NCBI GenBank assembly: GCA_965263295.1
Contig: OZ253665.1
Coordinates: 1-64,000, forward strand
Direction of reading: 5' to 3'
From: Spirochaetia bacterium
GTDB taxonomy: Bacteria > Spirochaetota > Spirochaetia > SP-2023
Length of the DNA stretch: 64,000 nt
Part shown: piece by piece, positions 41,515-55,579 of the stretch
Position numbering within the stretch: the stretch's first letter is position 1
Layout: every line of letters starts with the position of its first letter
Position numbers and translations under genes: made by a program
The notes under the pieces: model-generated
Seen by the model: only the letters and a program-made list of their open reading frames with translations
What the model was told of the DNA's origin: nothing
Databases searched by the model: none

Positions 41515-42876
41515 TTACAACCAGCGTGCGCAGAGCTGACGCAGCAACTCTGCTGCAAAATCATACTTGCCTAGCAGTGGCAGGGATACTTCAGGGCCCT
41601 CTGCGAAGAATAATTGTGCCTGGGCACAGCTGCTCTCAAGGTTCTGCGGACGGTTGAGTACAATCGCGTCGGCATTTTTCGTTTGCATTTTGGCCAAGGC
41701 ATGGTCTCGCTCTTGTGCTGGGGCCGCGCTGGGGTTCGCTCCCTCGCTCTCAAGGGCAAAGCCCAGAACTTTTTGGCGCTCTGTCTTGTGTGCGCCCCAG
41801 TGGGCCAGGATGTCGGGGTTCAGCTGCAGCTCAAGTGAATAGTTTTCTTGCTTGGGATTCTTTTTTATTTTTTTGTTGTGGTACTGGGTTGGGCGGAAAT
41901 CGCAAACTGCGGCGACGGCCAAGGCCCAGTCGCAGTGCGGGAAATGATCTGCGGCGTAATGAGCCATCTCGCTGGCGCTGTTGCAGTCCAGCACGCGAAT
42001 GCCGAAAAGTTGTTGCGCTAGCGTGTCGCGCACGGGGTGCTGAACTGCCATACCAAAGTGATTGGGGCCAAAGCGCTCGCGCTCAATACCCGAAATTAGG
42101 GTGACTTCCGCACCGAAGTCTCTTGCGGCGCAGGCCAGCGCGATGCCCGTCTTGCCGCTGCTGCGGTTGCTGATGTATCTGACCGGGTCCAATGCTTCGC
42201 GCGTGGGGCCCGCACTCAGCAGTATTTTTTTGCCGGCAAGTGGCTTGTACTTGGGTGAACGCAGTGCCGCTTCGACGCGATAGTAAAGTTCTTCGGGTTC
42301 GGCCATGCGCCCCTGGCCTTCGGCGCGGCAGGCCAAAAAACCACTCGCGGGCTCAATGAACTGGCAACCTAGTTGCCTCAGGCGTTGCACGTTTTGTCGT
42401 AAAACTTCTTTGCGCCACATTTCGGAGTTCATCGCCGGGGCGAAGAGCAAAGGCTTGCCGCCGCCATTTTTGTCTGCTAGCGGCCATGCGGCGAAAACAA
42501 GACTCAGCAGGTCGTCGGCAAGGCCGTTGGCGGCCTTGCCGATCCAGTTATAAGTGGCCGGAGCCACTAGAAAAATATCGGCTTCTTCGACCAGGGCGAT
42601 GTGCAGGACCGGGCTGCTGGCTCTTGCGGCATAGTTTGCGCCATCACTTATATTTGCGCCGTCGTAGCGCCGCCACATGTCCGAATAGACGATTTGCCCC
42701 GAAAGGGCTTCCAGCGCCTCGCGGCTGGCGAAGCGAGCGCCGGCTTCGCTGAGTATCACCCGGACGCGAAATCCCTGCTGGCCGAGCAGTGAGACCAGAC
42801 CGGGAATTTTATAGGCGGCGATGCCGCCGCCGATACCGAGCAGGACATTGCCTCTGCCCCCTGCGTTTGGTTTCAC
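41515..42876 (-). CDS. coaBC: Bifunctional phosphopantothenoylcysteine decarboxylase/ligase
   Basis: GGIAAYK, APAMN..MW, LAC..GQGRMAEPE, AGPTREALDPVRYISNRSSGK, GFALE. Confidence 0.97.
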   Translation of the reverse strand: MKPNAGGRGNVLLGIGGGIAAYKIPGLVSLLGQQGFRVRVILSEAGARFASREALEALSGQIVYSDMWRRYDGANISDGANYAARASSPVLHIALVEEADIFLVAPATYNWIGKAANGLADDLLSLVFAAWPLADKNGGGKPLLFAPAMNSEMWRKEVLRQNVQRLRQLGCQFIEPASGFLACRAEGQGRMAEPEELYYRVEAALRSPKYKPLAGKKILLSAGPTREALDPVRYISNRSSGKTGIALACAARDFGAEVTLISGIERERFGPNHFGMAVQHPVRDTLAQQLFGIRVLDCNSASEMAHYAADHFPHCDWALAVAAVCDFRPTQYHNKKIKKNPKQENYSLELQLNPDILAHWGAHKTERQKVLGFALESEGANPSAAPAQERDHALAKMQTKNADAIVLNRPQNLESSCAQAQLFFAEGPEVSLPLLGKYDFAAELLRQLCARWL

Positions 42877-44363
42877 AGCTTCGGCTGGCTCCGCCGAAAG
42901 AGAACCGTTGGACTAGCTGTGAGTCCGTAAGCCACCAGGCCGACCAGCAGGCTGTAAGGCAAAAGTCTGACGCCGCCAAAGTCGGGATATAGCCAGTTGA
43001 GTGCGGTGTATGAGCAGAGCCCCAGCAGGCTTGAGCTAATTGCGGCATGGGCACCTGGGCGCCGCGTCAAGATACCCAGAACTATGGGCCACAGCAGGGC
43101 GACCTGGGTAATTCCCAGGGCATACAGGTTTAAAGTCACCAGTAATTGCGGGGGCTTCAGGGCGAGTATGGCACAAATTACGATAGTCAACGCAGCTAAA
43201 ATGCGGCTGAGGCGAAAATGCCGTTGCTCGCTGCTGGATGTTTGCGCGCGACTGGATGATCGGCTGAAACGGCTGAAACGGCGCGGCAGCAGATGGCGAT
43301 AGATGCACAGTCCCAGGGTGTTTAACGCCGAGTCGGCCGTGGACATAATGGCGGCGAGCATGGCGCTGATCAGCATGCCGCTAAAGAGGCTGCCAATTGC
43401 GCCGTATTGCGGCGCGCGGAACAGTTGGCCGATGCGTCCCATCACTTGGTCTGGCTCTGAGATATCCGGCAGCACAATACGGCCAAGAAAGCCGATAAAA
43501 TGGGGCAGAAAGACTAGCGAGCCGAGGACAGCAATCGAAATCAAAATCCCCTTGCGCAAACTCTGGCCATGCTCCAGGGCCAATAGGCGCGAAAAGCTAA
43601 TGGGTTGCACGATCATGCCGAATCCGACCAGGATGGTAAAATTGAGCGTGTAGCTTAGTGGCACCAAGCCGCCGCCGTCGGCCTGGAAGAGTTCTGGGTT
43701 TCCCCTGGCAAAGTGGCTCAGCCCGTTGGCACCGCCGGCTTTCTGCCAAAGGAAGGCGAACAGTATCAAGCTCGCTAGCAGCATCCAGGCACCTTGCAGA
43801 ATATCTGTCAATACCACGGCGCGCAGGCCGCCCAGCAGAGTGTAGACCCCCAAGGCCAGGCTAAATATGAATAAAATTTTTCCGTAGCTAATGTCATATT
43901 CGCTTAACGCCCCTTGGAGCAGGCGGCTGCCGCCCATGATGGCAATCATCAGTTGTATGGCGAGTATTATGGCAATTAGCATGGCGCAAAAACGACTGTA
44001 GAGGCGCGAGCGATAGCGCAGCAACAAGTAGTCGGCCAAGTCGTAGAGCTGGTGCCTATGGCCTAGTTGCCGTATCTGTTGGCCAAATATGCCCATGATA
44101 ATCAGGCTGACCGGGTATTGCACGGCGGCCAGGAAAACCCAGGCCAAGCCCCGGCTGTAGGCGACGCCGGGGCCGCCGATAAACGACGAGGCGCTCACAT
44201 AGGTCGCGGCAGTGGTCATAGCCAGAGAGAAAATGCCCAGTTGGCGCCCGCTCAAGAAGTAGTCGAAAGCCAGGTTTTTGGCACCGCGGCTGCGGCCGCG
44301 ATGCCGGCTGTACAGGGCAACGGCAATCAAAAGGACAAAGTAGGCGAAGATAGTGACGATCAT
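42873..44363 (-). CDS. panF: Sodium/pantothenate symporter
   Basis: AMTTAATYVSASSFIGGPG, GGLRAVVLTD, AAIMSTADS; ATG at 44363. Confidence 0.9.
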   Translation of the reverse strand: MIVTIFAYFVLLIAVALYSRHRGRSRGAKNLAFDYFLSGRQLGIFSLAMTTAATYVSASSFIGGPGVAYSRGLAWVFLAAVQYPVSLIIMGIFGQQIRQLGHRHQLYDLADYLLLRYRSRLYSRFCAMLIAIILAIQLMIAIMGGSRLLQGALSEYDISYGKILFIFSLALGVYTLLGGLRAVVLTDILQGAWMLLASLILFAFLWQKAGGANGLSHFARGNPELFQADGGGLVPLSYTLNFTILVGFGMIVQPISFSRLLALEHGQSLRKGILISIAVLGSLVFLPHFIGFLGRIVLPDISEPDQVMGRIGQLFRAPQYGAIGSLFSGMLISAMLAAIMSTADSALNTLGLCIYRHLLPRRFSRFSRSSSRAQTSSSEQRHFRLSRILAALTIVICAILALKPPQLLVTLNLYALGITQVALLWPIVLGILTRRPGAHAAISSSLLGLCSYTALNWLYPDFGGVRLLPYSLLVGLVAYGLTASPTVLFRRSQPKL

Positions 44364-44668
44364 AGCCGTCCTCCCGCCTGTTGCCGGCCCGAATCCGCGG
44401 CCGGCCGCGGATTGTCGGGCAGCAGCCAGATGCTCAGGCTGAACAGCAGAGGCAAGCTGACAATGCTGCTGAGCCAGAACCACAGAGGCAGCCCTAAAAA
44501 TATTAAATTTAGCCTCGCAGCGAGGCCGCTGTGGGTGCCGAGAACAGCCCAGAGGAACCACCAGGCAAAAAATGCGAGACTTAATATCAAGCTGCGTTTG
44601 CCGAGTGTCGGAGCTTGAGAATTTTGTTCACTTTGCCAGTCTTGGGTATTTTGCTCTTGATCGTTCAT
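44360..44668 (-). CDS. YhdT/DUF997-like small membrane protein
   Basis: Two TMs with GLPLWFWLS; immediately upstream of panF, as in yhdT-panF operons. Confidence 0.75.
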   Translation of the reverse strand: MNDQEQNTQDWQSEQNSQAPTLGKRSLILSLAFFAWWFLWAVLGTHSGLAARLNLIFLGLPLWFWLSSIVSLPLLFSLSIWLLPDNPRPAADSGRQQAGGRL

Positions 44669-45150
44669 AATGACTCCTTTTGCGCTTGTTTGACGCGCTT
44701 GTTTGATTTGTGGAGCCAAATAGAAGGCCGTCCGAGGCGGGGACTATGCGGCCGGGGAGTGGAGAAAATTAGGCTAGGTCCCAATTACAGTATCAATTGA
44801 CAATTGCCTGCTGTCATTGTCGATTGCGGTGGTACCTGGATTTCAGGTCCTGCGATGGCAGCACTTTGGGATTCGCCTAGTTTGATATTCGCCGGCAAGA
44901 GAGTCCAAGTCCAGAATCCTGCGATCTCGGCTCCGTCAAGCGCCCGCCATGCTAGTTTTTTTGTTTTTGACCGTCAAGAAGGGGAAGGCAGAGAAAACCT
45001 TTTCTGCTAAGATGACAATTCGGCTGGGCTTTTGGGGTGCTGGGCCTGGTGCGGGCGGTTTCAAGCGGCCTGATCCAGCGGCTTGATCAATCATATGTGT
45101 CCGGACCAGAATTCATGCGCCCAAGCCGGGCAGTGAGCAAAGGAGGGTGT

Positions 45151-45687
45151 ATGTTCTCAAATGAGAATATTCCATCAAATACTATCAATGGTAGCGATGC
45201 CAAACTTGGAATTTGCCTGCAGTATCGCTCAAAAAATTTTGGTCCGTTGCTTGTCGGCCTGCGCGAGCTGGAACCGGGCGACTACCACAAAGGCTACATG
45301 CAGCTTTGTGCCACGCTGACCAGTTGCCCTGAAATTTCGGAGGCCCAGTTTCATCAGATTCTGGCTGAGCGCGAGGCGGGGCGCTGGCATACCTGGGTAC
45401 TGACCGATAGCGTCGCAGATCAGGAGCGCTTGGTGGCGACCATTAGTTTGCACCTGGAGCGAAAATTCTACCGCGATGGTCGCTATGTGGGGCATATCGA
45501 AGATCTAATTGTATTGCCAGAATACCAGCAACATCAACTAGGGAAAAGTTTGATGCAGTTCGCGATTGACAAGGCGGAGGCCATGAACTGTTATAAAATT
45601 ATCCTCGACTGTGACGAAAGATTGCAAGAATTTTACAGTAAAAGTGATCTGAAATACAGCAATATCCAGATGGCCAAGTATTTTTGA
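45151..45687 (+). CDS. GNAT acetyltransferase, glucosamine-6-phosphate N-acetyltransferase (GNA1)-like
   Basis: LRELEPGDYHKGYMQL, LERKFY...VGHIEDLIV, LGKSL, CYKIILDC, FY; ATG at 45151 after AAGGAGG. Confidence 0.85.
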   Translation: MFSNENIPSNTINGSDAKLGICLQYRSKNFGPLLVGLRELEPGDYHKGYMQLCATLTSCPEISEAQFHQILAEREAGRWHTWVLTDSVADQERLVATISLHLERKFYRDGRYVGHIEDLIVLPEYQQHQLGKSLMQFAIDKAEAMNCYKIILDCDERLQEFYSKSDLKYSNIQMAKYF

Positions 45688-45697
45688 CGGCGCGAAC

Positions 45698-47716
45698 ATG
45701 TGTGGGATTATTGCGTATTGTGGTGAAGAAAACGCCCAGCCCGTAATACTTTCTGGCTTAAAAAAACTGGAATACCGTGGCTATGACTCTGTAGGCATGG
45801 CTTGTGCCCAGGTCAAAGGTCTGGATGCGGGGTTTGCCATGTACAAGGAAGTGGGCAAAGTAGAGGACCTGGAACGCCTCTGTGAAGAGCACAGCTTGCA
45901 AGGCTTCAGCGGAATTGGCCACTGTCGTTGGGCGACGCATGGTGCCGTGACCTGGGCCAATGCCCATCCTCATCTCAGTTTCGACGGCCAGGTCATCCTG
46001 GTGCACAATGGCATTATCGAAAACTACCTGGAATTGCGACGTTTTCTCGAAGGCGAGGGCCTGGTTTTTCAATCGGAAGGGGATACCGAAACGGTTGCCA
46101 ACCTCTTGGCTTATTTATTGCAAGTGGGCCAGGGGCGCGATTTGTCGCCGGCGGCCACCCGCATTTCGGCGCGAGCCCGGCTGCACGGCGAACAGGGGCA
46201 GGACCTCGCTTTGCGCGCCCTGCAGAGCCTGCCTCACTGGTTGAAGGGGGCCTATGCCCTGGCCATAATGTTTGCCGCCCGGCCAGATGAAATTTATGCC
46301 GTCCGCTGTGAAAGCCCACTCGTGCTCGGCCTGGGACAGCGGGGCAATTATCTCGCTTCCGATGTATTGCCCATTTTGGATTACAGCCGCGAAGTCATTT
46401 ATTTGCAAAACCACGAGATTGTCCGTTTAAGACGACCCGGTGACTCCGGTGACTCTGCCGCCGGGTCCGGTTTTGCGGCCATGCAACTCTACGATGCCGC
46501 CGCCCGGCGATTAGAGCCTAGCACAGTGCGCGCGACAAGGCTGCAAAAGCTACAAGAAAGCGCCGAAGTCGTCGACAAACAAGGCTACCAGCATTTTATG
46601 GCCAAAGAGATATACGAACAGCCCAGGGTCTTCCGCGACTTGTTTCGGCGCCATGTGGATGCGCACGGCTGGCGGCCGCGTTTTGCCTTTGATGAGCAGC
46701 AGGAGCAGAAACTACGGGGTATTCAGCAGATCGTTTTTGTCAGTTGCGGCACCAGCTACCATTCTTCGGTCTATGCCAAATACTTGTTGGAAAAATACTG
46801 CGGTATTGCCGTTCGCGTTGAATATGCCTCTGAATTTCGCTACCGCGAACCGCTGCTGGGTCCGCATACTTTGGTCATCGGTCTGTCCCAGAGTGGCGAG
46901 ACGGCAGACACCCTGGCGGCTTTGCGTTTGGCTAAAGATCTGGGCGCGGCGACTCTCGGCCTGGTCAACGTGGCCAGCAGCAGCATTGCCCGCATGGTGG
47001 ATATTTTGCTGTGCAGTCACTGCGGGCCAGAGATCGGCGTGGCTTCGACCAAGGTCTACACGGCCCAGTTGCTGATTCTCTATTATCTGACGTTCTACCT
47101 GGCTCACTTGCGCGGCCTGGGCACGCGCGAACTAGTGGCGCAAAAGTTGCAAGAAAGTCAAAAGCTGGCGGTGTTTGCCGGACGGATTCTGAGCCAGGCG
47201 GACAGCTTGCGCGAGCTGGGCCGGGCGTATGCGGGCTACCAGCACATGCTCTACCTCGGACGCGGATTGTATTATCCGCTGGCCCTGGAGGGGGCTTTGA
47301 AGCTCAAGGAGCTGAGCTACATCCACGCCGAAGCTTACGCTGCGGCTGAAATGAAACACGGCCCCATCGCGTTAATTGACAATCGCATGCCCGTGCTGGT
47401 GCTGGTACCGAGCTGTGGCACCCTCTACGAAAAAATGCAGAGCAATATTGCCGAGGTGAAAGCTCGTGGCGGCCGCATCCTGGCATTTGTCGGCGCGGCC
47501 GCCGGCAGTCAAGAGACAGAAGAAGCCGGCGCAGCCTCGTTTGCCGAGCTAAAAGCTCTCTACAACGACCATTTTGTGCTGCCGTCCATTAGCGAAGAGC
47601 TGGATGTGCTGATTCTCGCCTTGCCTCTGCAGCTGTTTGCCTACCATATTGCCGTGGTCAAGGGCATCGACCCGGACCAGCCGCGCAACCTAGCTAAATC
47701 CGTGACGGTGGAATAA
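45698..47716 (+). CDS. glmS: Glutamine-fructose-6-phosphate transaminase
   Basis: MCGI, LEYRGYDS, RWATHG, SQSGETADT, EGALKLKE, PRNLAKSVTVE. Confidence 0.98.
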   Translation: MCGIIAYCGEENAQPVILSGLKKLEYRGYDSVGMACAQVKGLDAGFAMYKEVGKVEDLERLCEEHSLQGFSGIGHCRWATHGAVTWANAHPHLSFDGQVILVHNGIIENYLELRRFLEGEGLVFQSEGDTETVANLLAYLLQVGQGRDLSPAATRISARARLHGEQGQDLALRALQSLPHWLKGAYALAIMFAARPDEIYAVRCESPLVLGLGQRGNYLASDVLPILDYSREVIYLQNHEIVRLRRPGDSGDSAAGSGFAAMQLYDAAARRLEPSTVRATRLQKLQESAEVVDKQGYQHFMAKEIYEQPRVFRDLFRRHVDAHGWRPRFAFDEQQEQKLRGIQQIVFVSCGTSYHSSVYAKYLLEKYCGIAVRVEYASEFRYREPLLGPHTLVIGLSQSGETADTLAALRLAKDLGAATLGLVNVASSSIARMVDILLCSHCGPEIGVASTKVYTAQLLILYYLTFYLAHLRGLGTRELVAQKLQESQKLAVFAGRILSQADSLRELGRAYAGYQHMLYLGRGLYYPLALEGALKLKELSYIHAEAYAAAEMKHGPIALIDNRMPVLVLVPSCGTLYEKMQSNIAEVKARGGRILAFVGAAAGSQETEEAGAASFAELKALYNDHFVLPSISEELDVLILALPLQLFAYHIAVVKGIDPDQPRNLAKSVTVE

Positions 47717-47722
47717 AGCCTT

Positions 47723-48298
47723 ATGGATGATAAGATGGCTGACATGGGCAAAACAAAGCGGCGGGCCATTCTGACAAAGAGGGGCTGGATCATCTTTCTG
47801 GCCGTTTTTTTGTGTTATATCCTGGTATTATCGTATTTCGCATATCCGTATATCAAATTTATATTTATCAATGAAACAATTAATCGGCACAAAGCGAATA
47901 AAGCGATGCAGGAACTCATAACAGAGATGCCGTACCGGGATGCGGTAAAAAAGAGTGAAATAGCTCATTTTCACTGGAATAGTAACTACTGCTTCTATGT
48001 CGCGATCGCGTATATCTCGGATATTCCCGCGGCAGAACCGGAACAGGTAAAGGATTCCATATTTCACTATCTCAAGACTGCGCGAGAAGTGCCCTCAATA
48101 TATCATGTCGAGCACAATGGCAAGGAGACTGTCACTAGCTTGGAACACGGCATTTATATGAAAGACTACGACTATGACCGATCTACCGATGAGCAATTTC
48201 GGGACCACTTTTCTTCGATAAAAATACCGCCAGATGTCCATTTTATTGTGGGCTGGGAAGTCATCGAAGATTATCAGGATTCCTTGCAATGCCATTGA
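47723..48298 (+). CDS. Hypothetical membrane-anchored protein
   Basis: Single N-terminal TM; more AT-rich than its neighbours. Confidence 0.65.
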   Translation: MDDKMADMGKTKRRAILTKRGWIIFLAVFLCYILVLSYFAYPYIKFIFINETINRHKANKAMQELITEMPYRDAVKKSEIAHFHWNSNYCFYVAIAYISDIPAAEPEQVKDSIFHYLKTAREVPSIYHVEHNGKETVTSLEHGIYMKDYDYDRSTDEQFRDHFSSIKIPPDVHFIVGWEVIEDYQDSLQCH

Positions 48299-50450: not shown

Positions 50451-50642
50451 CCAGTTTGGAGGCCAGGATTGAGAGTTGAGTATCTGGCAGCGATCGTTTG
50501 CTTTTGTTCCCCTGTGACTTGCGGCAGTCAAGTGAGTTACGATCTTTAAACCGGCGGGATGAATTGACATAGCGGCCAGATTTTCTTACTTTTGCTAAAA
50601 ATACCTTGTTGATGAGCCAGGTTATTGGTAGGAGGTGATTTA

Positions 50643-52226
50643 ATGGATAAGAATCAAGACAATTTGGATTTAGCGATGCTGATTGAAAACGGCGCGTCTG
50701 AAGGCGAGGTTCAGGCGGACGCTTTGGCCGATAAAATGGATATACCGCCAGACGGCGCAGAGAAGACCCGGGGCGTTGTCCGTTCGTTTATTCGCTCATA
50801 CAAGAATAAGTCTCCTGAGCTATCGAATAGGGAATGGCTTGCTAGTGAATTTTCCAAATATCCGGAAATTTGGCTTGATCAGAGTGAATTGACCCAAACT
50901 GTGGGGGAAGTGGTTGGGCAAGTGGAGCTCTTTGATGCCTCAAATCAGGAACTCGCAGAACATCATCACAAAGGGCTGAGTACAAATAATTGGCTTGCGA
51001 AAAAAATTGAACAGGGGGCATCGGCAAGTGGTGTCACCAATTTGGGAGCTTATGCCGGAGAAATTGATGGGGCGATTGAAACAGCCAACAAGGCGAATGT
51101 CGACTTGCTGTATCGCAATGATGGTCAACTGAATCAACAGTACAACCTGGATGGTTTCATTGCCGAACAGCATCATGCCGATACTTTCAATTTAGATGCG
51201 GCGGCCAAAGGCAGTGGATACCGGGCAGAGGTTTTGCAACCGAAACCTGGCGAGCCGTATGGAAAAAATTCAGTGGATATTGTTGTTCGGAATGGGGATG
51301 GCAAAATTGTCCGTCGCTACCAGTCTAAGTATGGTAAAGATGCCGATGCCACGGATGCGATGTTAAAACAAGGTGATTATCGCGGGCAGCGCAAGCTGGT
51401 TCCTAAAGGGCAGTCCGAAGATATTGCCGGCAGCACCGAGAAAATTGAAATTGATGGCGTGGAGTCGCAGCCGCTTTCCAAGCATGAAGCCAAAGAGTGG
51501 CAACGCAAAGCGCAGGAAAAAGCCGAGGCCAGGCAATATGACTGGAATCAAACCAGCAGAATAGATATCGCCAAGAATATCGGCAAAAAAGCCGGCGCGA
51601 CCGCGCTGCTATCTGTGGGCTTCCAAGGCGCCCGCATTCTCGGCCGGCGGATATGGAACAAAATCAAGGGAAAAGAAAATAAGAGCGTAGAAGAGGATCT
51701 CCAAGAGTTTGTCGGGAGTTCAATTAAATCCGCGGCGACGTCCGGCCTGACGGTTGCGGTCACAGGAGGCTTGACGGTTGCGGTAAAAAGCGGTTGGCTG
51801 GGCAAAGTCCTGAAAGCGACTCCGGCGGGCAGGATTGCGAATGCCGTTTGCCTGGGGATTGAAAATGTCAAAATCCTCTACAAATATGCAACGGGCGAGC
51901 TGAGCAGAGAAGAAGCCCTCAATCAAGCAAGCAGCGCCACATGCAGCCTCGTCGGCGGTCTAGCTGGCGGCGCGAAGGGGGCGAGTGTCGGGGCCGCAGT
52001 CGGGACCGCACTGGGACCGGTTGGCACTGCAATTGGCGGCGTGGTCGGTGGCGTGGTCGGCGGAATCGCGGGAAGTAGCGTCGGCCAAGCGATACACGAA
52101 GGTGGCAAAAAAATTGTTACCGCCGTTGTTGAAAAGGTTAAGTCCGTTGGAACCGCGATCTACAGCGGTGTAAAATCAATTTTCAGTGGCGTAAAATCAC
52201 GTGTAAAATCAATATTGGGGTTTTAG
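50643..52226 (+). CDS. Uncharacterised protein: putative PD-(D/E)xK-like central domain plus C-terminal glycine zipper
   Basis: GFIAEQHH..TFN...SVDIVV...YQSKY; Gly-rich GxxxG stretch near the C-terminus; ATG at 50643 after AGGAGG. Confidence 0.8.
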   Translation: MDKNQDNLDLAMLIENGASEGEVQADALADKMDIPPDGAEKTRGVVRSFIRSYKNKSPELSNREWLASEFSKYPEIWLDQSELTQTVGEVVGQVELFDASNQELAEHHHKGLSTNNWLAKKIEQGASASGVTNLGAYAGEIDGAIETANKANVDLLYRNDGQLNQQYNLDGFIAEQHHADTFNLDAAAKGSGYRAEVLQPKPGEPYGKNSVDIVVRNGDGKIVRRYQSKYGKDADATDAMLKQGDYRGQRKLVPKGQSEDIAGSTEKIEIDGVESQPLSKHEAKEWQRKAQEKAEARQYDWNQTSRIDIAKNIGKKAGATALLSVGFQGARILGRRIWNKIKGKENKSVEEDLQEFVGSSIKSAATSGLTVAVTGGLTVAVKSGWLGKVLKATPAGRIANAVCLGIENVKILYKYATGELSREEALNQASSATCSLVGGLAGGAKGASVGAAVGTALGPVGTAIGGVVGGVVGGIAGSSVGQAIHEGGKKIVTAVVEKVKSVGTAIYSGVKSIFSGVKSRVKSILGF

Positions 52227-52228
52227 GT

Positions 52229-54247
52229 ATGGATTCTAAAAGAATTGTTGAAAAAATTCGTTCTGGTGTCTCAGGCCTCCATATACAGTCTGGCGATTAC
52301 AAACGTGTCGATAAAGTGATTGGATCAATCGCCACCGAATTAGATTTTAGGGTCTCCGAGTGGAATAGGGGATACGGGTGGGTCGATTTTAAGACCAAGC
52401 AGCCGCGCGATTCTAATGCCGAGGTATGCCTTTATAAAGACTTGCAAGCCATTGCCGATGACGACCCCTCTACCCCTAGGGGAAAAATTTATGTCATTCA
52501 AGATGCCCGCTCCGCGTTGGAAAACAGCCCTGGGGCTCCCGAACGTCTGAAACGGGAATTATTGCGACTCCAGACTCATTTCGGGGGGCATGCAGCGATT
52601 CTTCTGGTCGCCAAAGAAGGCATTAGTTTTCCAGCATTTTCCGATCTGATCAAGACCTTTCCTTGCCCCCCGCTCGCATCTGATGAGGTCAAAGCAATTC
52701 TGACTGCATTTCAGGCCGAGAACGATATTTCAATGGCTCCTGCGGTAAAAAACAAACTCATATCCACCTGCTCGGGCATGGAAGAGTATATGGTGCTTCA
52801 GGTCCTGAAAATTTTAAAGAACAACCATGGCCAGTCCTTCGCCGAAGGAGCGGTAGATGATGCTGTAAATCAAAAAAAGTCCTTCCTGTCACAGTCCGGG
52901 CTGCTTGAGCTGATTGATGCGCCAATCAACATGGCTGGAATTGGCGGTTTGGGCCGGTTTAAAAGGTGGTTGCGGGACAAGAAGAAGCCCATCATGGATG
53001 ATTTGTCCCAGGCACAAGAATATGGCATCGCCGCCCCGAAAGGCGTCCTGTTGGCCGGTATGCCCGGATGCGGGAAATCAATGAGTGCCAAGGCTGCGGC
53101 GTCACTATTCAATGTCCCCCTGCTGCGCTTGGACGTTGGATCTGTAATGGGAAAATTTGTCGGCGAAAGTGAAGCCAACATGAAGGCGGCACTTCAAGTG
53201 GCAGAAACAGCGAGCCCCTGTGTGTTATGGATGGATGAACTTGAGAAGGCCTTTGCCGGGGTCAATAGTTCTGGCGGCAGCACGGAGATAACCACGCGAC
53301 TTTTTGGTTATTTTCTGACGTGGATGCAGGAGAAGCCGGGAGCCGTCTTTGTGGTGGCCACAGTGAATGATCTTAGCTCTACACCTCCTGAATTATTGAG
53401 GCGTGGGCGTTTTGATGAGATTTTTTATATTGATCTGCCTGCTGAGTTTGAGCGTGAGGAGATTTTTGAATTAAAGATTAAGGGACTATCCACCAAATCT
53501 AAAGCTGCTGTCAACGTTTCCCAAAACCTGGATTTTGCCGCATTGGCCGAAAACAGCGAAGGTTTCTCCGGGGCGGATATTGAACAAGTTATCCAAGGTG
53601 CCTTGACAGACCTGTTTCTGCAGCGTAATTCATCGGAGGAAAATCTAGAGTTGACCCAGGCGGATCTCGCGCGACACATTCAGTCGACCACCCCGATGAG
53701 CGTGGCTCTCAAAGACAAGGTTCAAAGCGACAGAAAAAATTTTGAGGGTTATAAACTTGAAAATGCTTCATTTTCGGAGGAAGAGCACCGTAAATTTCAG
53801 TCCACCCAACCCATGGGTGTGGTTGTCAAAGACAAGATTCAAATTGGCAAAGAACAGTCTGAGCAATATAAAGAACAGCCTAAGCAATATAAAATTAAAA
53901 GGTTTGAAGAAACATTTAGAGAATTTTACATGTCTTACCAACATCTAATATTTAACCGTAATCGCCTAAAATTTTATTCAAATTTAAGCGATAACGAACG
54001 TGAAGAATATAAAGAAGACTTTGAAGGATATAAAGAAGACTTTGAAGAATATAAAGAACACTTTGAAAAATTCAAGAACATTAGATACTTAGATAGTTTT
54101 TTTACAAGAAAATATGAAAGATTTTTGGAAGGCTTTCAAAAATTGAAAAGAACTGAATTATTTAAATCAGAAAATTTTAAAGAATTATTTGAAGAGCTTG
54201 AAGAAATATTTACCATCTTGGGTGATATATATGCTATTGTGAGCTAA
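52229..54247 (+). CDS. AAA+ ATPase, Ycf46-like
   Basis: IGGLGRFKRWL, PKGVLLAGMPGCGKS, VLWMDELEKAF, PPELLRRGRFDEIFYIDLP, GFSGADIE. Confidence 0.92.
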   Translation: MDSKRIVEKIRSGVSGLHIQSGDYKRVDKVIGSIATELDFRVSEWNRGYGWVDFKTKQPRDSNAEVCLYKDLQAIADDDPSTPRGKIYVIQDARSALENSPGAPERLKRELLRLQTHFGGHAAILLVAKEGISFPAFSDLIKTFPCPPLASDEVKAILTAFQAENDISMAPAVKNKLISTCSGMEEYMVLQVLKILKNNHGQSFAEGAVDDAVNQKKSFLSQSGLLELIDAPINMAGIGGLGRFKRWLRDKKKPIMDDLSQAQEYGIAAPKGVLLAGMPGCGKSMSAKAAASLFNVPLLRLDVGSVMGKFVGESEANMKAALQVAETASPCVLWMDELEKAFAGVNSSGGSTEITTRLFGYFLTWMQEKPGAVFVVATVNDLSSTPPELLRRGRFDEIFYIDLPAEFEREEIFELKIKGLSTKSKAAVNVSQNLDFAALAENSEGFSGADIEQVIQGALTDLFLQRNSSEENLELTQADLARHIQSTTPMSVALKDKVQSDRKNFEGYKLENASFSEEEHRKFQSTQPMGVVVKDKIQIGKEQSEQYKEQPKQYKIKRFEETFREFYMSYQHLIFNRNRLKFYSNLSDNEREEYKEDFEGYKEDFEEYKEHFEKFKNIRYLDSFFTRKYERFLEGFQKLKRTELFKSENFKELFEELEEIFTILGDIYAIVS

Positions 54248-54324
54248 TATTTTGAGAGGTATTAGGAACAGGAAATCCTTATGCCGGAATCCGCGCTGCG
54301 GAAATACCCGTGCCGGTGGCTTGA

Positions 54325-54335
54325 GGGGGGGGGGG
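54325..54335. repeat. G11 homopolymer
   Basis: Directly visible, 153 bp upstream of the ATG at 54488. Confidence 0.9.
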
Positions 54336-54487
54336 CTGGATTTCAAGGGACTGCGGCTCCCCAACAAGACCGCGATTACAAATACCTTGCGGCCCGGCGG
54401 CCAAATTTTGAATATAGGGGATTGTCGCTTTTTTCTTTGGGCACGGGAAAGCGTTACACGAGTGGGCGACGATACAGGAGATTTAGC

Positions 54488-55579
54488 ATGGGAAAAGACA
54501 AAAACATTTCCATAAAGTTAAGAAAAATATCCATTGAGAACTACAAAGGCATTGATTCCTTCTCAATGGATTTTCCGGTGCCTAAGCTGCCTGGAGACCC
54601 TGATATACTGATTATGGGAAGTGAAAATGGTTTAGGGAAAACATCGATTATTGAGTGCTGCGCTCTTCTTTTGATGTGTCTGAGTATAAAGGAAAAAACT
54701 TTTGAGTTGAGGGATAGGTATCTTCCAATTGATGTCCCAGATCTGCTCATTAGGGCGGGAAGCAATGCCGCTGGGATAACGGGTGATATCGTTATTGATG
54801 ACAAAATTATAAAGATTGGGATATCAATTGATCGAGATGGGGTGGTCAAAATAAATAAAAATATCCCAAAATCGAAATCTTCTGAGACTTCTCTCATTGA
54901 TGAAGATAGTGATGTTGAGGAATTGCTGAAAGTGATCTGTGGCTTTTCGCTCAACCCGGTTATTGAGAATTCATTTCTGCTTTTCCACAGCTACCGTAAA
55001 GTTCAGGAAGGTAACCCTGAGTTGGGCATGATGGTCAGTGACACTGAGTCTAGAAAAATGCGTAGAATGCTGGCATACCGTCGTATGGAAATGCCTTTGA
55101 GTAAATTTAAAATTCTTTTTCTTCGCTCATTGATGAACCGAGCTGATCTCTTTGAATTTTCCGAGGAAAAAGAATCGAAGGAAACCATCGATAAATTGAA
55201 CGAGTTGGTGGAATTCTACGCTGGCGGAAGAATCAGCAAGTTGCGACCGTCGCCAGAAAATACGTTGGATTTTAGAATTAAACTTGGTAATGCCAGTCAC
55301 TCCGTTACATTTGATGGACTCAGCTCCGGCCAGAAGGAGATTATTTCAACACTATTTCTTATTTGGTATCAAACCAAGAACAAACATTCGGTCGTGTTTA
55401 TTGATGAACCCGAGCTGCACCTGAATGCTCAGTGGCACAGAAATTTTGTAAACATGCTGATTAAGCTGGCACCTGAAAATCAGTATGTTTTTGCTACGCA
55501 TTCCGAAGATATTATGGATTCTGTTGCAGAGAATTGCCGTATTATCCTCGTGAAAGATAAGGGGAACAGCAATGCTTAA
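54488..55579 (+). CDS. ABC-type (AAA_15/AAA_21) ATPase of OLD/AbiEii-like defence modules
   Basis: ISIENYKGI, GSENGLGKTS, LSSGQKE, VFIDEPELHL, ATHS; ATG at 54488 after AGGAG. Confidence 0.88.
   Translation: MGKDKNISIKLRKISIENYKGIDSFSMDFPVPKLPGDPDILIMGSENGLGKTSIIECCALLLMCLSIKEKTFELRDRYLPIDVPDLLIRAGSNAAGITGDIVIDDKIIKIGISIDRDGVVKINKNIPKSKSSETSLIDEDSDVEELLKVICGFSLNPVIENSFLLFHSYRKVQEGNPELGMMVSDTESRKMRRMLAYRRMEMPLSKFKILFLRSLMNRADLFEFSEEKESKETIDKLNELVEFYAGGRISKLRPSPENTLDFRIKLGNASHSVTFDGLSSGQKEIISTLFLIWYQTKNKHSVVFIDEPELHLNAQWHRNFVNMLIKLAPENQYVFATHSEDIMDSVAENCRIILVKDKGNSNA

Follow-up and report, generated by a model that had tools for sequence, protein, structure and literature searches.

By which enzyme, and in which order of steps, does a spirochaete acetylate glucosamine phosphate on the way to UDP-GlcNAc (uridine diphosphate N-acetylglucosamine)? 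According to the accessible text of reviews, acetylation of glucosamine 6-phosphate (GlcN-6-P) is the eukaryotic order and GlmU is the bacterial rule (PMC10087520). The question is raised by a locus in the window, i.e. the whole stretch of 64,000 nucleotides analysed here (contig OZ253665.1 of a Spirochaetia bacterium, positions 1 to 64,000), where a gene for a small GNAT protein, P0001, directly precedes glmS, coding for P0002. By sequence, predicted fold and site residues P0001 is a member of the GNA1 family of glucosamine-phosphate N-acetyltransferases. Very probably it serves as the glucosamine-phosphate acetyltransferase of this organism, replacing the acetyltransferase half of GlmU. With less assurance, but still as the reading we prefer, its predicted substrate is GlcN-6-P, acetylated before a mutase acts, which is the eukaryotic order. 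The locus is composed of the following features.

45140-45146, plus strand: Shine-Dalgarno-like AAGGAGG, 4 nt upstream of the GNA1 ATG (sequence reading)
45151-45687, plus strand: gene of the GNA1-family GNAT P0001, 178 aa (PDB search, AlphaFold2 model, Foldseek, site residues)
45688-45697, plus strand: spacer of 10 nt from the GNA1 stop to the glmS start (sequence reading)
45698-47716, plus strand: glmS, glutamine--fructose-6-phosphate transaminase P0002, 672 aa, with intact N-terminal MCGII (TIGR01135, NF001484)

The first-pass annotation, made from the letters alone, had noticed a 178-aa GNAT ending 10 nt before glmS, and the coordinates (45687 and 45698) agree with this. The gene begins with ATG; an alternative upstream GTG at 45037 would extend the open reading frame (ORF) to a protein of 216 aa, and the alignment of relatives to P0001 begins at about residue 31. 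P0001 is assigned to GNATs by Pfam, and its codon use is ordinary for its genome. P0002 scored above the cut-off with both profiles, 678 bits for TIGR01135 (cut-off 418) and 696 bits for NF001484. Judging from their spacing alone, the two genes are probably co-transcribed.

Membership in the GNA1 family, also proposed by the first-pass annotation, was confirmed by sequence search, by structure prediction and by site residues. The search of PDB with P0001 gave 11 matches at E ≤ 0.01; as the best nine of them are GNA1 or its Trypanosoma orthologue (E from 1.4e-23 to 1.9e-12) and the tenth drops to 1.7e-4, the assignment stands above chance. The AlphaFold2 model has a mean predicted local distance difference test score of 87, with a folded core at approximately residues 31-178 and low confidence for the N-terminal 30 residues. 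In Foldseek every rank listed for this model down to 24 is taken by a GNA1 chain or by the orthologue of Trypanosoma (E from 1e-13 to 6e-9), and the first other GNAT appeared at E 4e-8. As a family, GNA1 enzymes are characterised as homodimers with the sugar site at the subunit interface. All motifs quoted in the annotation are present (ERKF at 103-106, GHIED at 114-118, LGK at 130-132, CYKIILDC at 147-154 and FY at 161-162), except that the valine it ascribed to the GHIED motif stands one place later, in GHIEDLIV. Their equivalents in aligned PDB chains are GHIEDIAV and CYKTILDC for Aspergillus and GHIEDVVV and CYKVILDC for Arabidopsis. Most of the top matches in the representative search (P0013-P0025) were proteins of 223-438 aa with two GNA1-like stretches.

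In the Caenorhabditis elegans GNA1, as given in the available part of its description (PMC3413214), the site includes E104, D105, K136, C141, Y149, M161 and R164: E104 and D105 bind the 3- and 4-hydroxyls of the sugar, K136 and R164 belong, with three further residues, to the 6-phosphate pocket, and C141, Y149 and M161 are conserved residues near acetyl coenzyme A (acetyl-CoA). On alignment with these published positions E104/D105 correspond to E117/D118 of P0001, K136 to K149, C141 to C154, Y149 to Y162 and M161 to M174. All six are kept in 10 of the 10 aligned rows of the P0001 clade, it being understood that prokaryotic and viral loci were collected via the patterns CYK-LDC or HIED and that for them conservation at those columns is circular. 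The three nearest non-GNA1 GNATs lack E103, K105, H115, D118, C154 and Y177.

The source genome (G000) belongs to the class Spirochaetia, comprises 2.41 Mb in a single contig and is 92.6% complete; among named relatives Candidatus Haliotispira prima comes nearest, with 70% identity. Profile search detected MurA above cut-off, and therefore UDP-GlcNAc is needed. A complete bifunctional GlmU, which the annotation itself regarded as a finding that would weaken its pathway claim, was not detected by profile search in this genome: the best match had 27 bits against a cut-off of 367 and fell in a Vat/CatB-like protein, while 9 of 14 controls were above the cut-off. The three hexapeptide-repeat proteins of the genome are Vat/CatB-like, gamma-carbonic-anhydrase-like and GlgC-like. 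A Vat/CatB-like O-acetyltransferase is encoded at 1558429-1559085 (L001:1153-1809); against the model of the Vat family, which has a cut-off of 300, it scores 260 bits. The genome was also searched by tblastn, with no N-terminal half of GlmU found by half-GlmU queries taken from loci of the candidate phyla radiation (CPR) and no DUF4954, which was absent from the profile search as well. For GlmM the best profile match (79.5 bits, cut-off 448) came from the sole phosphohexomutase, a 593-aa protein (528286-530064) giving the single PF02878 match of the genome.

The annotation had contrasted this locus with the GlmM and GlmU of most bacteria. The contrast holds for this genome, yet it proved to be a trait of the class, since in a panel of 61 Spirochaetia genomes profile search found GlmU above cut-off in 0 of 61 and GlmM likewise in 0 of 61; glmS was present in 46 of them and PF01704 in 43. 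DUF4954, a candidate acetyltransferase, was registered in 43 of the 61 genomes, in 39 of the 46 having glmS, and in both genomes of the same order (G004 and G005), but in 0 of the 4 members of the genus. In a sample of 401 genomes 21 GNA1-like matches were obtained at E ≤ 1e-22, and removal of one (G282) after the tree left 20 genomes of 4 families. Neither DUF4954 nor GlmU was found in any of these 20 GNA1-carrying spirochaetes. Two features may represent other solutions within the class: a near-cut-off GlmM (412 bits) adjoining a 294-aa ORF that is beta-helix only (G051:C1:1245166-1247193), and a GlmU-N-like domain (124 bits) in a 761-aa frame (G052:C130:7923-8723).

Coupling to glmS is not confined to the source genome. 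GNA1 stands directly before glmS in three of the four genus members, at distances of 10 nt (G000), 5 nt (G001) and 190 nt (G002), and in the fourth (G003, 94% complete) neither gene was found. A member of another family, f43 (G221), has GNA1 31 nt before glmS. In G046 both genes are broken and lie 11 kb apart, the one as a GNA1-like stretch interrupted by a stop, the other as a fragment of glmS containing 8 stops. In that region (L292, G046:C1:434000-453000) the mutase lies 3 kb from the broken GNA1-like gene, and tandem lipoprotein-like genes stand between the latter and the broken glmS. The longest contigs of the four nearest further GNA1s (49-56% identity) agree in length (19957, 13884, 9491 and 8761) with those of four of the five nearest further glmS genes, and this agreement in length suggests that the contigs are shared. 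When the genome collection was scanned by pattern, 231 relatives were confirmed; the best 80 of them, kept with flanks of up to 6 kb, belong to Spirochaetia, Nitrososphaerota, Patescibacteria, Planctomycetes, TM6, Woesearchaeota and a few other groups. Seven of these 80 loci have glmS within the flank. An archaeal one (L097) shows an abutting run of glmS, mutase, a 238-aa nucleotidyltransferase and GNA1; two of CPR (L099 and L123) have the run glmS, GNA1 and a 250-aa half-GlmU, and in L122 GNA1 is followed by glmS.

Based on these data the following route can be proposed. GlmS would yield GlcN-6-P, and P0001 would move the acetyl group from acetyl-CoA onto it, giving N-acetylglucosamine 6-phosphate (GlcNAc-6-P). 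The sole 593-aa phosphohexomutase would shift the phosphate to C1 with formation of N-acetylglucosamine 1-phosphate (GlcNAc-1-P), from which a stand-alone uridylyltransferase, either a 341-aa protein of the 3pnn family or a 534-aa PF01704 protein, would make UDP-GlcNAc for MurA. Salvaged N-acetylglucosamine (GlcNAc) would be fed in at GlcNAc-1-P by a NahK-like kinase. From its length we take the mutase to be of PgcA/PGM2 type; no model scored above cut-off. The eukaryote-like route suggested in the annotation is thus supported in part, by the family membership of P0001, by the coupling to glmS and by the lack of detected GlmU and GlmM in this genome; as a complete route it is a suggestion: no AGM1/PGM3-type enzyme was found, as no AGM1 structure is among the 46 PDB matches of the 593-aa protein (no AGM1-specific profile was run).

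Nucleotidyltransferases of the genome include GlgC-, ManC-, IspD- and NeuA/PseF-like proteins, a 264-aa protein of the cytidylyltransferase family and the two candidates named above. The 341-aa protein (1030029-1031051) matches PDB entry 3pnn at E 2.6e-52. Its family was present in 24 of 77 genomes; it was detected in each of the remaining genus members (3 of 3) and in every f43 genome (4 of 4), against 0 of 4 in f4 and 0 of 10 in f44. In four of the 12 loci read (L318, L319, L321 and L326) a gene for a NahK-like kinase comes next after the 3pnn-family gene, and this order points to GlcNAc-1-P as the substrate, so that the 3pnn-family protein is a candidate GlcNAc-1-P uridylyltransferase. The source genome has its own NahK-like kinase (686623-687822, E 5e-66 to solved NahK). 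The same genes would permit a bypass of the mutase, in which GlcNAc-6-P made by P0001 is dephosphorylated by a putative phosphatase, rephosphorylated at C1 by the NahK-like kinase and uridylylated by the 3pnn-family enzyme. The presence of this kinase, the gene order in those four loci and the constancy of the 3pnn family in the genus and in f43 agree with such a bypass; at the same time no phosphatase candidate was identified, extra ATP would be spent, salvage alone accounts for NahK, and the search of f4 and f44 gave no member of the 3pnn family. We regard it as very improbable.

The 534-aa protein (330394-331995) scores 38.7 bits on PF01704 (cut-off 22). Its PDB matches are weak and belong to UDP-glucose pyrophosphorylases (E 0.013), and its Atlas neighbours are of both UDP-glucose and UDP-GlcNAc type. 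The PF01704 gene of G031 and G059 has as neighbours on its two sides a GH3 gene, confirmed in both, and a second mutase, confirmed in G059; in five other loci examined by Pfam it follows a glucokinase-family gene. In two f43 genomes and Entomospira no PF01704 was found, by a search that returned no match whatsoever. The protein belongs to a spirochaete-wide family and is a candidate uridylyltransferase of the source genome. In two small f28 genomes without glmS (L016, L017 and L291) the PF01704 gene is flanked by a GH3 gene on one side and by a divergent second phosphohexomutase on the other.

Several observations weigh against the proposed reading, and the first group of them concerns the order of steps. 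The phosphate-binding R164 of the C. elegans enzyme (PMC3413214, available part) is replaced in P0001 by Y177, as it is in Arabidopsis 3t90 and Aspergillus 2vez, both named GNA1. According to the portion of the paper at hand, GNAT L316 of Mimivirus accepts glucosamine 1-phosphate (GlcN-1-P) too, with a 5-fold preference for GlcN-6-P (PMC9614988), and PgcA of Bacillus subtilis is described, in the part available, as able to mutate GlcN-6-P (PMC6797236). The role of the 593-aa protein as a GlcNAc-phosphate mutase is itself a prediction. Since L316 takes both phosphates and PgcA acts on GlcN-6-P, there is room for the bacterial order, in which a PgcA-type mutase would make GlcN-1-P and the GNA1-fold enzyme would acetylate it, standing in for the C-terminal domain of GlmU. 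The lack of a detected AGM1-type mutase in the source genome fits that order, and other prokaryotic GNA1s accompany a half-GlmU and ordinary mutases. Full-length GlmU was found in 0 of 50 GNA1-carrying prokaryote genomes (50 of the genomes of the 80 loci were searched), a count that includes 22 archaea, in which one would not expect the bacterial glmU model to pass its cut-off, and genomes whose completeness was not reported; in 19 of the 28 bacteria among them a GlmU match of at least 187 bits ended at model position 236-358 of 452, i.e. covered the N-terminal part only. P0001, however, retains those residues by which GlcN-6-P is held in the solved GNA1 structures, as far as they are described in the text available, L316 prefers GlcN-6-P, and in four spirochaete genomes GNA1 is linked to glmS rather than to a mutase. 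We therefore consider the bacterial order unlikely, though it deserves to be kept in mind, and return to acetylation of GlcN-6-P as the favoured reading.

The second group concerns the function as such. In G007 and Entomospira nematocerorum GNA1 is present but no glmS could be detected, two loci (L078 and L079) carry it apart from a glmS situated elsewhere, and 73 of the 80 prokaryotic loci have no glmS in the flank, many of them ending at contig ends. The mutual exclusion of GNA1 and DUF4954 rests on 4 families, so that with related genomes being non-independent it amounts to about four lineages rather than twenty trials, and the role of DUF4954 is putative. Four panel genomes with glmS (G015, G016, G023 and G052) lack both GNA1 and DUF4954. 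Finally, the source genome has a NagA-like gene (222 bits, just below the cut-off of 226); NagA would reverse the acetylation, and regulation would therefore be needed. One can imagine that P0001 acetylates a different substrate, or that GlcNAc-6-P merely traps scavenged glucosamine or feeds surface sugars, with de novo UDP-GlcNAc of the wall made by an unrecognised enzyme. The Entomospira-family GNA1 without glmS, the PF04488 glycosyltransferase gene adjoining GNA1 in L078 and L079, the NeuA/NeuB-like genes of the source genome and the four genomes with neither candidate, which imply that further enzymes exist, are in line with this; adjacency of GNA1 and glmS recurring in unrelated lineages, their joint absence from G003 and joint decay in G046, and the exclusion of GNA1 with GlmU and DUF4954 in the genomes searched speak against it. 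Such another role seems improbable to us, and the preferred assignment to cell-wall precursor synthesis is retained. In f43 (L078:5159-5959, L079:5141-5956 and L297:693-1472) GNA1 is placed head to head with the PF04488 glycosyltransferase-like gene, their starts nearly touching. NeuA/PseF-like and NeuB-like genes of the source genome are adjacent (L282:1453-3157), and a phosphonopyruvate decarboxylase gene, above cut-off, adjoins the ManC-like gene (L005:1-1065).

The origin of the gene is less evident. The P0001 clade comprises the Spirochaetia families f1 and f43 and further rows, with a support of 99 in FastTree (thinning at 58% identity had left 217 of 406 rows) and 100/99 in IQ-TREE (48 and 52 chosen rows). 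GNA1s of the Entomospira family and of f44 fall outside it, those of f44 within the main prokaryotic clade (IQ-TREE, 52 rows). The P0001 clade lies outside eight named eukaryotes, mostly plants, and beside viral and further rows (97/87 with 48 rows, 80/92 with 52 rows), three of its neighbours in IQ-TREE having been picked from the earlier FastTree tree. Among the best 80 of 324 relatives in the viral collection are the best full-length matches, with up to 38% identity. In approximately unbiased (AU) tests none of the sister groups of P0001 was rejected: the prokaryotic clade gave p 0.57 (4.2 log-likelihood units better), the named eukaryotes p 0.29 and Entomospira p 0.30. The eukaryotic donor suggested by the annotation thus finds no support in that form, since GNA1-like genes exist in several prokaryotic groups and both kinds of sister group, prokaryotic and eukaryotic, pass the tests without rejection. 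Position 177 is Tyr in 10 of 10 rows of the P0001 clade, in 8 of 8 named eukaryotes and in 41 of 48 viruses, and Asp in 16 of 23 rows of the main prokaryotic clade; the tyrosine shared with eukaryotes and viruses may be taken as a mild lean toward their side. The glmS of the source genome groups with that of the same-order G004 (support 96, long branches), and the simplest history would therefore be that a native glmS gained GNA1 while DUF4954 was lost. A fuller scenario, which we offer only tentatively and as more doubtful than its parts, is a peptidoglycan-walled bacterium making UDP-GlcNAc in the eukaryotic order without GlmU and GlmM, whose GNA1 came from the eukaryote or giant-virus side, displaced DUF4954 and was fixed before the native glmS, being one of three separate recruitments of GNA1 in the class.

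As to the neighbourhood, a 191-aa ORF (47723-48298, plus strand, GC content 0.43) begins 6 nt past glmS and has a single sub-threshold match to DUF3139; glmS loci L076 and L077 have no similar-sized plus-strand ORF downstream. On the minus strand, divergent from GNA1, a DUF997-like gene, a sodium:solute symporter gene and a CoaBC-like flavoprotein gene follow consecutively at 41515-44719 (Pfam), presumably a block of pantothenate uptake and coenzyme A synthesis. At 50625-55579 (plus strand) there are genes for a 533-aa protein without Pfam match and an AAA ATPase of 672 aa, and an ATPase-like ORF of 432 aa, with raised GC content and AT skew; possibly they form a mobile or defence island.

The route of Spirochaetia to the cell-wall precursor is a gap, GlmU and GlmM being below cut-off throughout the panel. 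The locus supplies a small soluble acetyltransferase candidate for it, and candidates can be named for both subsequent steps; the exclusion pattern of GNA1 independently supports DUF4954 as the usual enzyme of the class. If the fuller scenario is true, GlcNAc phosphates are handled in spirochaetes by their one PgcA-type mutase together with a stand-alone uridylyltransferase, and this class-wide gap would be closed. In our literature search, with most subscription journals outside its coverage, neither a characterised GNA1 of a prokaryote nor any work on how spirochaetes synthesise UDP-GlcNAc came up; some metagenome records carry the automatic name glucosamine-phosphate N-acetyltransferase. 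An archaeal homologue is mentioned in the text available (PMC9614988), and some species having only the N-terminal domain of GlmU are said, in the available part of a preprint, to need a further acetyltransferase, still to be identified (bioRxiv 10.64898/2026.06.23.733835).

With the bacterial GlmS-GlmM-GlmU pathway the source genome shares a normal bacterial GlmS and, presumably, the end product, but GlmU and GlmM are below cut-off in it and the acetyl step would be performed by a GNAT fold rather than by a left-handed beta-helix. NagU of Staphylococcus aureus is likewise a eukaryote-like enzyme in bacterial UDP-GlcNAc synthesis; unlike P0001 it performs the uridylyl step, and the main text of its description, so far as available, deals with neither spirochaetes nor GNATs and has GNA1 in one reference only (bioRxiv 10.64898/2026.06.23.733835). 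The pathway of Mimivirus (L619 GFAT, L316 GNAT and R689 UAP), in the available part of its description (PMC9614988), resembles that of the source genome as a hybrid route in which GNA1 is combined with a stand-alone uridylyltransferase, no mutase being assigned to it either. The genes of the virus lie scattered, whereas here GNA1 and glmS are adjacent in a cellular genome with MurA and, by tblastn, without a detected GlmU-N-like uridylyltransferase. Eukaryotic GNA1/GNPNAT1 (EC 2.3.1.4; PDB 3t90, 2vez, 1i12/1i1d, 2huz and 4ag7) has 28-35% identity to P0001, the model of which fits the Trypanosoma, yeast and human chains with root-mean-square deviations of 1.1-1.4 Å and has site residues and the C-terminal IQMxxY in common with them. 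In contrast to these enzymes P0001, with its predicted activity, is bacterial, encoded upstream of a bacterial-type glmS in a genome without detected AGM1 orthologue, and belongs to a clade of its own. The prokaryotic GNA1-like clade known from sequence in CPR, Planctomycetes, Nitrososphaerota and Woesearchaeota is of the same family and likewise linked to glmS and half-GlmU, but forms a separate branch (98/93 and 99/100) having mostly Asp at position 177. What the locus contributes beyond these systems is an example from spirochaetes, a GNA1 branch of its own and the mutual exclusion with DUF4954.

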